This document shows positions 15,119-24,699 of a stretch of DNA of 64,000 nucleotides, piece after piece. The notes beneath the pieces were generated by a model. That model searched no databases, had not been told where the DNA came from, and was given only the letters and a program-made list of their open reading frames with translations. Positions within the stretch are counted from its first letter, which is position 1; the number at the start of each line of letters is the position of its first letter. The stretch is from Patescibacteria group bacterium (GTDB lineage: Bacteria > Patescibacteriota > Patescibacteriia > 2-01-FULL-39-33), in assembly GCA_041650895.1 (NCBI GenBank), contig JBAZKF010000001.1, positions 209,685 to 273,684 of the forward strand, written 5' to 3'. The translations under genes were made by a program, and so were the position numbers.

Positions 15119-15681
15119 AAACAAAAACTCCCACCCAGAATAAGGCGGGAGTTTTATAGAATTACTTTAAATAAAAATTAATCAGGTTTCTGCGAACTGG
15201 CGGTCAAGGTGCCAACAGCATTGCCGTGGTCATAATAACCCTCTCTGAAGCCAGCTTGGATAATCGCGGGAACGGCTGAGCCGTAAAGCGCGGTCTGAGC
15301 GGCTGAATCAGCCAATTGGTAAAGATTGCCTCTCGTAGCAACGGCATAAATTATCGGACTGTTATCAAACTTAATCAAACTGCCCGGTTTGGCGATTAGA
15401 TTTCCACCAGTAGGAATAGCATCAAATTCCGCTTGAGAAACTAGGATAAGGGTAGCAAAGTTATTGGCGCTATCACCGGCGTCGGAGCTCCAAGTCGTAT
15501 AGGTGGCACGATTAACGAATAAATATTTCTTGCCATCAACAACATAATAAACAGCCGGACGGTCACTGGCATTGACTTTTATGATTGAACCAGGGGTATT
15601 ACTGACGACGACTGACGCCGGAGCGGCGGGAGCGGCGGGAGTAGCCGGGGTTTCAACTTCGGGCGTGGCCGGAGTGGCGGG
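15119..15681. repeat. 563-bp direct repeat, copy 1 (identical by my reading to 16585-17147); covers the 3' end of the gene, the stop, the 3' UTR and the terminator
   Basis: Offset 1466 bp verified at both repeat ends and at the stop codons. Confidence 0.8.
15121..15156. terminator. Bidirectional intrinsic terminator (AACTCCCACC-cagaataa-GGCGGGAGTT); an identical copy lies at 16587-16622
   Basis: Hairpin with T-run on the plus strand and tttttgt on the minus strand. Confidence 0.65.
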
Positions 15682-16455
15682 CTCAATAGGAATTTCTGAT
15701 ACTGAGGATGCCTTAGTAATAGTATTAGAATCCAAAGTTACTGCGGTCTGAGCTAAGGCTCGGCCGTTTAATGTTGCGCCGTTTTTCAAAACAATCGCCG
15801 TTTGATCCAAAATATTTCCGTTAAAAACAGCATTCGTTTCAATAGTCGTTTGTCCTCCAACTACCCAAAACACGTTGTTTGCTTGCGCTCCACCAGTTAA
15901 GATAATTTTTACACCAGAATCAATAGTAAGATTTCTCGTAATCAAAAAAATCCAAACATCTTCCGCACCGCCGGATAAAGTAAGATCCGCCGGTATTCTC
16001 ACGTCAGTAGTCCATTTATAAATATTAGGTGCAAATATCTGCCCACCAATATTTCCGGTTAATAGATCAATAAAATTAGACAATCGTCCTATATTACCGG
16101 TAAACGCGTTTTGCATGTCATCTATCGCCGTGGTCAAATTAGCGGGGGTTGGCTCTGCATAATCCGACGCGTAGACTTTTCCCGTTACTAAAGCTGAAGT
16201 GGAAAATGCCCCCGCCGCAGGCAAAGTTAAGGCAAACCCAGTTATAGCACTTGCGGCGATTGGACTTACCCCAATATCACCGACAACCGCAGTTGACCCG
16301 GTAGTTGAGATACCGGTTTTTGCCAAAATTGCATAATCACCAGCTGAACCGAGATCCACGATTTCCGGACCGGCTGCGAATACGGTAATGGGCCCCGCCA
16401 GACTAACCGTAACGGCCATAAGCATAGCCGTTGAGAGTATTTTTAATGTTTTCAT
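15178..16455 (-). CDS. Secreted ice-binding-like (DUF3494) domain protein with a Pro/Thr/Ala linker and a shared ~150-aa C-terminal domain
   Basis: Signal peptide, then AGDYAILAKTGISTTGSTAVVGDIGVSPIAASAITGF..., typical of the DUF3494/IBP family. The C-terminal 172 aa are identical to those of 16644-17885. Confidence 0.7.
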   Translation of the reverse strand: MKTLKILSTAMLMAVTVSLAGPITVFAAGPEIVDLGSAGDYAILAKTGISTTGSTAVVGDIGVSPIAASAITGFALTLPAAGAFSTSALVTGKVYASDYAEPTPANLTTAIDDMQNAFTGNIGRLSNFIDLLTGNIGGQIFAPNIYKWTTDVRIPADLTLSGGAEDVWIFLITRNLTIDSGVKIILTGGAQANNVFWVVGGQTTIETNAVFNGNILDQTAIVLKNGATLNGRALAQTAVTLDSNTITKASSVSEIPIEPATPATPEVETPATPAAPAAPASVVVSNTPGSIIKVNASDRPAVYYVVDGKKYLFVNRATYTTWSSDAGDSANNFATLILVSQAEFDAIPTGGNLIAKPGSLIKFDNSPIIYAVATRGNLYQLADSAAQTALYGSAVPAIIQAGFREGYYDHGNAVGTLTASSQKPD

Positions 16456-24100: not shown

Positions 24101-24699
24101 TTGTTGGCAGTAAAGCCATCGGAAGAAACCAAGCGCTTCATTCCACCTTCAATGTAATAAACTGAGGCATCGCCGGAGGTCTTGATTAAAGAACCATCGG
24201 GATACTTAGAAGTAGCGGTCAGGTCGCAAGAGGCATCCTTAGTATAGTTGGCCTCAAAAGAGGACTGGATAATGATAGGAGCGGCAGAACCGTATAAAGC
24301 GGTCTGGGCGGCGCTATCAACCAACTTGCACAGTTTAGCTCCAGGAGTGACAGCATAAACTAAACCCGAGTTATCGAATTTGATTAAGCTGACGCCAGAT
24401 CTGGCAGTGACATTGCCACCTAATGGCAAAGCGTCAAACTCAGATTGGGAAACAACCTTTAGACCGGCAAAGTTATTGTTAGCATCGCCAACATCATTAG
24501 CCCAAGTCGTATAGGTTACACGGTTGACAAAAAGATACTTTTGGCCACCCGTGACGTAGTACACAGCCGGATAAGTAGCGGTCTTGATCAGATCGCCGTT
24601 AGCTGGAGTATAAGCGGCAGCGGCCGGTAAAACGGCGCTGATACCCATAGACCAAGCAATAGTGGCTACGACTACAGAATAAGTTAAAAACTTTTTCAT
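21145..24699 (-). CDS. Giant secreted/surface protein (1184 aa): signal peptide, two N-terminal copies of the shared ~150-aa domain, then repetitive beta-rich Ser/Thr-rich domains
   Basis: N-terminal segment YTPANGDLIKTATYPAVYYVTGGQKYLFVNRVTYTTWANDVGD...DSAAQTALYGSAAPIIIQ is homologous to the C-termini of 15178-16455 and 16644-17885. Confidence 0.75.
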   Translation of the reverse strand: MKKFLTYSVVVATIAWSMGISAVLPAAAAYTPANGDLIKTATYPAVYYVTGGQKYLFVNRVTYTTWANDVGDANNNFAGLKVVSQSEFDALPLGGNVTARSGVSLIKFDNSGLVYAVTPGAKLCKLVDSAAQTALYGSAAPIIIQSSFEANYTKDASCDLTATSKYPDGSLIKTSGDASVYYIEGGMKRLVSSDGFTANNMKSSWVKTVSDVSGYATGSALTIKEAAVSAVVSGASAPIVTLGALGVSLAANNPVSATIVSDTVNTSQSLVPMIAVNLTASSAGDVKVTGMQFTRTGISNDTDVSNSYLFEGNTKLVEGGSIASKVLTFNYASGIVTIPAGQTKTIWLKVDTTIATGAGKSIGFNLTGVTSNATSVSGTPLTGNLMSTASVTDMGYVVISSGDVPTAASTVNSNETDFEVYKVILTATDQDMQLEGLRLTEIGSIGKDDLQNIKLNYGGTTLATASFNDNMEVYFDLSAAPFQIAKGNSKTLSIRADIVKGSTRTFKFSIQYASDIVVKDKGYGVYTQSFKSGVTTWSAVTSAASTYCYTINSGTLTLAKDATSPSGTIAGNSTNVKLATYKLTATGEDVKIKSMNVLGTATGNGAGLQNGKIYYDGVQVGSTKNLTASTTVNFTFGSSFIVPAGTSKLMDIYADVKTTDGTAITTGTVKVAASSSDAQGVISLTAVTLASQDGNTLTVGAVSSITMAKYAAYGNQTMPSPTSQAKIGSFSIAASASEGVNIDNIYVYGATSGAMSNMNLKVGSTIIGSKSAFSASNATTTISVNGKLNLAQGETKIVDIYADIASNLNAQTLTLSVDSDGTTPNTNTSATGVGHSLQAITIGAGSLTLDTNGSKPDSVIIVAGATTAVSAFTMLAANDSYTITNLTVSSTNTTAVRSIGAVVLEYKNEAGETKTASGYLSAAGLALFNNLSIWVPNGVGATVTIKAMVADATGAKSGDIIRLNLNPSDGTATTFSAVSKSTGSVIYAYTGSSGVTGNQMIVRRTKPTVSLISLPSTVLADGTVTLARFSIAADAAGDVTWRGIYFSYTTSTDIDITDSTIYLYKDGDSTKLNATGLSPVAGKTVSLVTDIEQTISKGTSQAYVLKADITGSAANTSVTTKITGTPDTAGTSTAYSNYFAAETMLRWSDRSGSSDDGVHTATSDDWCDSNYVKTLPSDSQTLSR

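Follow-up and report, generated by a model that had tools for sequence, protein, structure and literature searches.

Two parts make up the proteins that form surface-layer (S-layer) lattices, an anchor domain and a surface-forming one. Of the two, the anchor is better conserved; it also recurs on many further surface proteins encoded in the same genome, and it co-distributes with wall-polymer genes (bioRxiv 10.1101/2025.04.02.646754). In the S-layer and surface proteins of Firmicutes the SLH and CWB2 anchors are built of two or three tandem repeats of ~55–65 aa, which together make one terminal module. Repeats of similar size are also known from EccB (PF05108; PDB 4kk7, 3x3m, 5cyu, 6sgy, 7np7) of mycobacterial type VII secretion. 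The Patescibacteria, or Candidate Phyla Radiation (CPR), represent a large share of bacterial diversity and live attached to other cells, and cryo-electron microscopy work has reported an S-layer-like envelope on CPR cells. No characterised surface-anchoring system or S-layer protein of these bacteria is described in the literature that was searched, and we know of none. Here we describe a module of two or three tandem repeats, which is shared by three predicted surface proteins encoded in a 64,000-nt stretch of DNA from a Patescibacteria group bacterium (contig JBAZKF010000001.1 of assembly GCA_041650895.1, positions 209,685–273,684; below, the window). We propose, with a probability of about one half, that this module serves as a non-covalent anchor to the cell envelope.

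The three genes that carry the module, here named p1, p2 and p3, are all located on the minus strand. The first, p1 (15178–16455; 425 aa), encodes an ice-binding-like protein, which is entered in NCBI as 'ice-binding family protein' (MFA5124418.1), a name that derives from its ice-binding part only. The product of p2 (16644–17885) is an FN3 protein of 413 aa when translated from TTG, or of 405 aa from ATG at 17861; the shorter form equals the NCBI entry MFA5124419.1 ('hypothetical protein'), and this ATG is the likely start. The largest, p3 (21145–24699; 1184 aa), is also named 'hypothetical protein' (MFA5124422.1). The last 167 aa of p1 and p2 are identical, and the N-terminal region of p3 (residues ~29–170) can be aligned with this segment over 140 aa at 57% identity (BLASTP E = 1e-51), a similarity far beyond chance. 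Hence, the sharing of a ~150-aa domain by the three proteins, which had been claimed in an earlier note on this DNA, is real, but the segment is not a single domain. Its ~140 aa in p1 and p2 consist of two tandem, homologous repeats of ~65 aa, and in p3 a third repeat follows behind them.

The comparison of family alignments of the repeats using hhalign gave a probability of 92.5% for R1 against R2 (P 5e-7), 96.9% for R1 against R3 (P 2e-10), and 84.5% for R2 against R3 (P 7e-6), and the three units are on these profiles clearly homologous to each other. The data do not agree with the claim of the earlier note that p3 carries two N-terminal copies of the domain, the second of them degenerate. 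Instead, p3 has one three-repeat module (residues 29–228, at 24016–24615 on the minus strand; match to the profile hidden Markov model (HMM) at 1.4e-105), in which R1 (24400–24603), R2 (24208–24399) and R3 (24016–24207) follow each other, and the supposed degenerate copy is the single third repeat. Across the family the full module is made of three repeats and is ~175–200 aa long, while the two-repeat forms of p1 and p2 stop at 'KPD', which is aligned with the 'YPD' that opens the third repeat of p3. Three aromatic residues of the module, Y19, W38 and Y124, are invariant, and Y87 and Y108 are near-invariant. A pair of cysteines is present in 42 of 261 modules, mostly in the N-terminal, p3-like subfamily, and p3 itself has it (KLCKL at ~124, ASCDL at ~158). 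Neither cysteine occurs without the other, a pattern consistent with a disulfide and with a position outside the cytoplasm; the pair is probably an optional disulfide bridge from repeat 2 to the linker between R2 and R3.

In p1 and p2 the module is the last part of the protein, while in p3 it is the first part after the signal peptide. The two-repeat module of p1 (residues 285–425; 15181–15603, minus strand; HMM match 3.4e-79) is preceded by a Pro/Thr/Ala-rich linker (15604–15717), whose DNA contains periodic 9-nt repeats, and by an Ice_binding (DUF3494) passenger (15715–16329; PF11999 at 1.5e-69, residues 43–247), which also matches the NCBIfam model IBP_CFB at 4.4e-61, below the curated cut-off of that model. 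The identical module of p2 (16647–17069; 3.4e-79; DNA offset 1466 nt) stands behind a signal peptide, two FN3-like domains and a Pro/Thr (PT)-rich linker (17070–17861); the Pfam matches there are fn3 (1.1e-05, 25.9 bits against a cut-off of 25) and Pur_ac_phosph_N (28.3 bits against 30). These matches, together with the 167 identical residues, agree with the C-terminal placement of the segment in a DUF3494 ice-binding-like and an FN3 protein given in the earlier note. In p3 the module directly follows a signal peptide read from the translation (MKKFLTYSVVVATIAWSMGISAVLPAAA, then AYTP; 24616–24699), and is itself followed by a long body (residues 229–1184; 21145–24015). The starts of all three proteins resemble cleavable signal peptides when the translations are judged by eye. 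By the same inspection p1 and p2 end at the module, and p3 has neither a C-terminal transmembrane helix nor an LPXTG motif.

The size of the family was determined by searching 1.84 billion cluster representatives exhaustively with HMMER and a profile built of three sequences. The module was found in 2,542 cluster representatives at E <= 1e-3, in 803 at 1e-10 and in 52 at 1e-30. When the p1 module alone was used in a word-index search, only one orthologue fragment was returned, which shows that the exhaustive search was required to reveal the family; a second search of this type, with a profile of 44 sequences, gave 377 proteins. Apart from one short fragment labelled Acidobacteriota, the names among them are 'hypothetical protein', with Patescibacteria or Uhrbacteria as the source, or the automatic JGI label 'plastocyanin', and none of the 377 has a precomputed Pfam domain over the module. 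From these names, almost all named carriers of the module appear to be Patescibacteria. When the GTDB species genomes were scanned with sequence patterns, 44 related loci were obtained, nearly all of them in metagenome-assembled genomes (MAGs) of Buchananbacteria or Patescibacteria, and the nearest genomes found were Candidatus Buchananbacteria MAGs; since the patterns were built from eight closer sequences, these loci are skewed to Buchananbacteria. Several genomes among loci L008–L011, L018, L023–L025, L029, L030, L032, L035 and L039 are titled 'uncultured Gammaproteobacteria bacterium' (TPA_asm MAGs), yet the loci, with an ECF sigma factor, a DUF5667 protein and a module protein, are of Patescibacteria type, and these organism labels look wrong. 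Paralogues of the module are common within one genome: at least seven open reading frames (ORFs) carry it in one Buchananbacteria MAG and three in the window, where a six-frame HMM scan found no fourth copy.

The modules of the window proteins gave no significant match in Pfam-A, NCBIfam, PHROGs or the PDB sequences, and nothing consistent was found in Pfam for 44 diverse modules. Searches of the PDB sequences with a single sequence and with the 44-sequence profile gave only matches at the level of chance. NdhS was matched by 6 of the 44 members at E >= 0.005, which is noise. The family is thus real, large and unannotated in the libraries searched. The statement of the earlier note that this is not a known family therefore holds at the level of annotation. 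Neither of the outcomes that would have refuted that note was seen, as no well-described domain of known function is matched and the similarity extends far beyond this genome. The description of the domain as unrecognised stands in the same sense, but its fold is not new, because the units resemble the repeat domains of EccB, as described below.

To see where the module is placed in proteins, the best 150 of the 2,542 representatives were analyzed. In 104 of these the module is located just behind the signal peptide (residues ~29–200, with the start at ~29–35), and 44 of the 104 proteins are 1120–1540 aa long, like p3. The module is at the extreme C-terminus in 41 of the 150 proteins and internal in four. 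Among 65 members that are not p3-like, 34 Pfam families were found outside the module. The enzymes include Peptidase_S8 (six proteins), GH9 with CelD_N (three proteins) and Polysacc_deac_1, while the adhesin-type partners are PKD, FN3, several bacterial Ig-like domains, InlB B-repeats, CARDB and Cohesin. Chitobiase C-terminal domains, Ice_binding, Laminin_G_3, β-helix, DUF3048 and PG_binding_1 were also present, the last as a separate domain outside the module in some members. Many members of ~265 aa consist of a two-repeat module fused to a cupredoxin.

The fold of the module was predicted using AlphaFold2 for residues 29–229 of p3. The model calculated from a 52-sequence alignment had a mean predicted local distance difference test score (pLDDT) of 93.5 and a predicted template modelling score (pTM) of 0.86, while an earlier one from a three-sequence alignment, with a pLDDT of 48, was discarded. 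In this model three βββαβαβ units are packed as one compact body. When the model was compared with the PDB using Foldseek, ranks 1–11 were all periplasmic domains of EccB1, EccB3 and EccB5 (best E = 2e-4, probability 0.99). The first match other than EccB was chain C, the wall-binding domain, of the endolysin LysIME-EF1 (E = 0.06, probability 0.82, 66 columns). The comparison with known anchors, which the earlier note had suggested, thus gave a confident α/β model, but no SLH or CWB2 structure was among the top 50 PDB matches, and the EccB repeats were the best ones. In the viral structure database BFVD the best fold matches were uncharacterised small proteins of actinophages, which ranked above any annotated viral protein, and phage lysins, amidases and CHAP proteins were matched in their C-terminal parts by single repeats, with weak scores. 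The two actinophage proteins were A0A1I9SA71 of Rhodococcus phage Weasels2 (E = 4e-6) and A0A345MGB2 of Streptomyces phage LukeCage (E = 4.5e-3). On these models, EccB-type repeats may also circulate in phages of actinobacteria.

The similarity to EccB was also examined at the level of sequence. The M. tuberculosis EccB1 query was identical to PDB 3x3m over residues 72–480, and the boundaries of its repeats R1–R4 were taken from the published structure (PMC4769845). For this comparison 137 module repeats were pooled on one side, and 160 EccB1 repeats from ~40 EccB1 orthologues on the other; the EccB alignment was shallow, as all sequences were at least 66% identical to EccB1. In hhalign the two pools aligned in register over 46 columns, with a score of 20.0 (P = 5.9e-4). 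By comparison, 200 column shuffles of the EccB alignment gave a mean score of 7.5 (sd 1.7) with a maximum of 12.8, and the reversed alignment gave 11.8. When single repeats of the module were compared with the EccB repeats, R1 alone reached a probability of 61% (P = 8e-5, 51 columns) and R2 63% over 29 columns, while R3 gave no signal. The whole module against a single EccB1 sequence reached only 9% over 24 columns, and this weak result is the reason why pooled repeats were needed on both sides. The two kinds of repeat also share a motif, which is SMYYIDPQGVRYGVPNAETAKSL in EccB1 and PAVYYxGxDGKRYVFPNExTYxSW in the consensus of the module. Together with the fold match, these data suggest that the module repeats are likely, though not proven, to be remotely homologous to the repeats of EccB.

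Both proteins consist of small α/β repeats in tandem on the extracytoplasmic side, where the EccB repeat is a four-stranded sheet with two helices and the module repeat is predicted to be βββαβαβ. In their overall design they are different. EccB has a core domain flanked by 2 + 2 repeats, while the module is made of two or three consecutive repeats with none of the core between them, and the module proteins lack the N-terminal cytoplasmic segment, the transmembrane helix and the central six-stranded core domain of EccB. Unlike EccB, the module is also a mobile unit that is joined to many passenger domains. No ESX or type VII secretion genes (EccC FtsK-type ATPase, EccD, MycP, WXG100) were detected among the neighbours scanned with Pfam here and in 16 related loci. 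The PF05108 model itself matched p1 at 14.2 bits (E = 0.018), below its cut-off of 27 and partly on the PT linker; it matched none of the 44 diverse modules at E <= 1, and the profile search of the PDB at E <= 10 returned no EccB. By sequence and predicted structure, the module is therefore not a member of PF05108, and is built from EccB-type repeats.

The organization of the module proteins resembles more closely that of the SLH and CWB2 systems. Both have a single terminal module made of two or three tandem repeats, which within one genome is carried by a large surface protein and by many exoproteins and is more conserved than the surface-forming part; in both cases wall glycopolymer genes are found nearby. 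The repeats themselves are of another kind. SLH (PF00395) had no match at E <= 1 in p1–p3 or in the 44 members, and in contrast to the repeats of SLH, which are of the three-helix-bundle type, the predicted fold of the module is α/β with four to five strands per repeat. CWB2 (PF04122), LysM, SH3b, SPOR, PG_binding_1 and choline-binding repeats also gave no consistent match to the module in these proteins; Choline_bind_4 and Choline_bind_2 were each matched by one of the 44 members, which is at the level of chance. Small α/β units of ~60–70 aa also make up the wall-binding domains of the phage proteins PlyCB (PDB 4f87) and LysIME-EF1 (6ist), which bind wall polysaccharide. The ligand of PlyCB is the polyrhamnose backbone of the streptococcal wall polysaccharide (bioRxiv 10.1101/2021.03.19.436156), and the wall-binding domains of LysIME-EF1 form a tetrameric ring (PMC7098653). 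These domains form homo-oligomeric rings of single units in phage proteins, while the module is a covalent tandem in cellular surface proteins. PlyCB, the sequence of which was checked against 4f87, gave no hhalign signal with the module and was outside the top 50 Foldseek matches, and on both counts it is unsupported as a direct relative.

Taken together, the terminal position of the module behind signal peptides or PT-rich linkers, the many passengers, the several paralogues per genome, its place as the best-conserved part of a family of ~1200-aa proteins, and the fold matches to EccB and to an endolysin point indirectly to an anchor. This is also suggested by the fact that no other retention signal was seen in p1, p2 and p3, and by the conserved neighbourhood of envelope genes that is described below. 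The module would most likely function as SLH or CWB2 do. After export by the Sec pathway it would bind a component of the wall, which could be peptidoglycan or a wall-linked glycopolymer. When located at the N-terminus, the module would retain a conserved S-layer-like protein of ~1200 aa at the cell surface, while at the C-terminus, behind a PT-rich linker, it would retain a changing set of exoproteins. In the window these would be the ice-binding-like β-helix protein and the FN3 protein, and elsewhere subtilases, GH9 cellulases, cupredoxins and deacetylases.

Several observations weigh against the anchor, or against parts of the argument for it. The global template modelling scores of the module to EccB are low (0.23–0.28, with a root-mean-square deviation above 20 Å), and the best hhalign probabilities are only 29–63%. 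The low global scores are explained by the different arrangement of the repeats in the module and in EccB, and the similarity is thus local, at the level of the repeat. Additionally, the authors of the EccB1 structure stress the lack of experimental data for the binding of peptidoglycan by the EccB repeats, and the link to PlyCB is second-hand and weak. Unlike many domains that bind anionic polymers, the module is not consistently basic (family median pI 7.8; 5.7 and 6.5 for the copies in the window), and its charge is uninformative as a hint of such binding. Some members also have PG_binding_1, which would be redundant if the module bound peptidoglycan. Carbohydrate-binding modules or dockerins also sit where the module is found on GH9 cellulases and proteases, at the C-terminus. 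Two further points concern the gene neighbourhood, which is described below: control by an extracytoplasmic function (ECF) sigma factor is unexpected for a constitutive major S-layer protein, and genes for membrane proteins with Wzy_C and TPR domains are multicopy in this genome (a second one is at 3487–5910), so that part of their co-occurrence with the module could be due to chance.

The place of the module on GH9 cellulases, a polysaccharide deacetylase, proteases and proteins with chitobiase-type domains could alternatively mean that it recognizes targets outside the cell. It would then be a carbohydrate-binding or adhesion unit, which brings enzymes and adhesins to environmental polysaccharides or to the host surface of this probably episymbiotic bacterium. 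The conserved aromatic residues (Y19, W38, Y124; Y87, Y108) would fit stacking on sugars, the wall-binding domains of the PlyCB type and of endolysins bind the walls of other cells, and some members already have PG_binding_1 for their own wall. On the other hand, about two-thirds of the best representatives have the module at the N-terminus of a ~1200-aa protein, after the signal peptide, which would be the cell-proximal end of an anchored protein. The module is also the most conserved part and the distal body is variable, while an adhesin would show the reverse. Moreover, cupredoxins, ice-binding-like β-helices and subtilases have no common substrate, and p1, p2 and p3 have no other signal by which they would be kept on the cell. 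We consider an external target unlikely.

The third explanation is that the module is a unit of protein–protein docking or assembly, in which copies on different proteins interact with one another, or with the one on the ~1200-aa scaffold, to form rings, dimers or a complex similar to that of cohesin and dockerin. Oligomerization had been proposed also in the earlier note. PlyCB forms an octameric ring and LysIME-EF1 a tetrameric one, the periplasmic part of EccB is a dimer (PDB 6sgy) and a part of a larger assembly (PDB 7nps), and one genome carries the same module on a large conserved protein and on many enzymes. In contrast, the AlphaFold model is a compact monomer of three repeats (pTM 0.86), and oligomerization by itself would not hold proteins on the cell. 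As the explanation for the module, docking seems improbable. Because oligomerization coexists with wall binding in PlyCB and LysIME-EF1, it would be an addition to an anchor more than an alternative to it, and the three functions, anchoring, external targeting and docking, are not mutually exclusive.

It is extremely improbable that the shared segment is not a biological unit at all, and instead an artefact of assembly or a chance similarity of low complexity, because even though the two C-terminal copies are suspiciously identical over 563 nt, and a contig of the same genome in ENA ends exactly within p2, the module is present in thousands of independent proteins, its sequence is not of low complexity and folds at a pLDDT of 93.5, p1 and p2 stand together on a 957,791-nt MAG contig in NCBI, and a related locus (L047, on a JGI contig) has the same pair of an FN3-module and an IBP-module (ice-binding protein) gene with clearly diverged modules. 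Assembly is thus ruled out as the origin of the module, and its contribution, if any, is limited to the complete match between the two copies. The identity covers 15119–15681 and 16585–17147 without any mismatch (563 nt, 100%). Each copy comprises the module, a part of the linker and the stop codon, and the duplication extends 59 nt past the stop codon to include a strong terminator hairpin (at 15124–15155 in the first copy). Between the FN3 and IBP genes of L047 the identity of the modules is only 66% in amino acids and 73% in nucleotides, which indicates that genes of the p1 and p2 types are old paralogues. The complete identity in the window must then reflect a recent gene conversion, which carried the linker and the terminator along, or an effect of assembly. 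All three genes, p3 included, are on the same 957,791-nt contig, while one public assembly of this genome (in ENA) breaks inside p2.

In the family of ~1200-aa proteins the consensus fraction is 0.51–0.65 in the module and 0.22–0.47 in the body. The same is visible in the Buchananbacteria loci, where the module matches at 1e-57 to 1e-75, while most bodies beyond those of the closest relatives match at 1e-14 to 1e-25. The body of p3 is rich in T, S, A, G and V, is acidic (pI 5.0) and has only two cysteines, and no Pfam family was found in the body of p3 or of eight homologues. This family fits the bipartite build of S-layer proteins, with a conserved common anchor and a divergent surface domain, and p3 is a candidate S-layer protein, of which the body would be the surface-forming part.

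The neighbourhood of p3 is also conserved. In the window an ECF-type sigma-70 factor (26292–26843, minus strand; Sigma70_r2/r4, Sigma70_ECF) is the first gene of an arrangement in which a DUF5667 protein (25106–26320, minus strand; PF18915 at 2.1e-08), a candidate anti-sigma factor or envelope sensor, stands directly upstream of p3. Homologues of both are directly upstream of a protein of ~1150–1310 aa with an N-terminal module in 16 of 16 loci, which suggests that the large surface protein is under sigma/anti-sigma control of the envelope-stress type. This order was seen in the window (25106–26843) and in loci L003–L010, L012, L014, L017, L019, L020, L023 and L024. Downstream, at least 9 of the 16 loci have a Wzy_C-TPR gene within 8 kb of their p3 homologue. 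The co-occurrence with O-antigen-ligase-like and TPR genes that the earlier note had proposed to check is thus real, but it is not exclusive, and the link to the ECF sigma factor and DUF5667 is tighter. The complete order of p3-like, TPR, Wzy_C-TPR, FN3-module and IBP-module genes is kept in L047.

From 15178 to 24699 the window holds five minus-strand genes, which in the direction of transcription are p3, a TPR protein, a Wzy_C-TPR protein, p2 and p1. The TPR protein (20190–20954; 254 aa) has an N-terminal membrane anchor and matches to TPR families, and is kept in L003–L005, L020 and L047. The Wzy_C-TPR protein (18005–20188; 727 aa) is a membrane protein resembling O-antigen ligases or polymerases (PF04932 at 1.6e-20), with TPR families at its C-terminus. 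Proteins of this large type are encoded twice within the 64 kb (18005–20188 and 3487–5910), and related loci often have two in tandem. The Wzy_C family also takes in protein O-oligosaccharyltransferases, and for this reason the enzymes might glycosylate the Ser/Thr/Pro-rich linkers or the body of p3 instead of building a wall polymer.

When these elements are combined, a more ambitious picture is obtained, which we offer only tentatively and regard as doubtful in its entirety. The module would be the CPR counterpart of SLH and CWB2, a wall-anchoring system of the whole lineage made from EccB-type repeats; the ~1200-aa protein encoded behind the ECF sigma factor and DUF5667 would be the S-layer protein of these ultra-small cells; the adjacent Wzy_C-TPR proteins would make or attach the glycopolymer to which the module binds; and the HMM of the module would define the set of proteins displayed non-covalently on the surface of the uncultured episymbionts of this lineage. 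If such a counterpart of SLH and CWB2 exists, the mycobacterial EccB repeats would descend from an ancient wall-binding unit, which would give the periplasmic domain of EccB a testable function.

In the literature searched, the coverage of which was incomplete, we found no description of an EccB-like repeat that serves as a mobile module at the ends of dozens of passenger types throughout a candidate superphylum. The HMM of the module would label thousands of 'hypothetical' proteins as surface-displayed, and would single out the ~1200-aa candidate S-layer protein together with its regulatory and glycopolymer gene neighbourhood. Fusions of the module to green fluorescent protein (GFP) could become a tool for staining or capturing uncultured Patescibacteria cells. 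The link to EccB bears on the question of what the periplasmic domain of EccB binds in mycobacterial type VII secretion. If the module targets host surfaces instead, it would give a handle on host recognition. The data establish the module itself, its repeats, distribution, partner domains, synteny and predicted fold, and its similarity to EccB, while wall binding, the nature of the ligand and the S-layer role of p3, and with them the significance outlined here, are inferred from sequences, the structural model and the genomic surroundings.

Other features of the window lie outside the module genes. Another ECF sigma gene is located at 12932–13501. Between it and an HD_4 gene there is a minus-strand ORF of 240 aa with a TTG start (13532–14254), which had no Pfam match. 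A giant surface protein of 2110 aa is encoded on the minus strand at 49369–55701. The HMM scan found no module in this protein, which contains Fib_succ_major, F5/8 type C and many FN3/Pur_ac_phosph_N domains.

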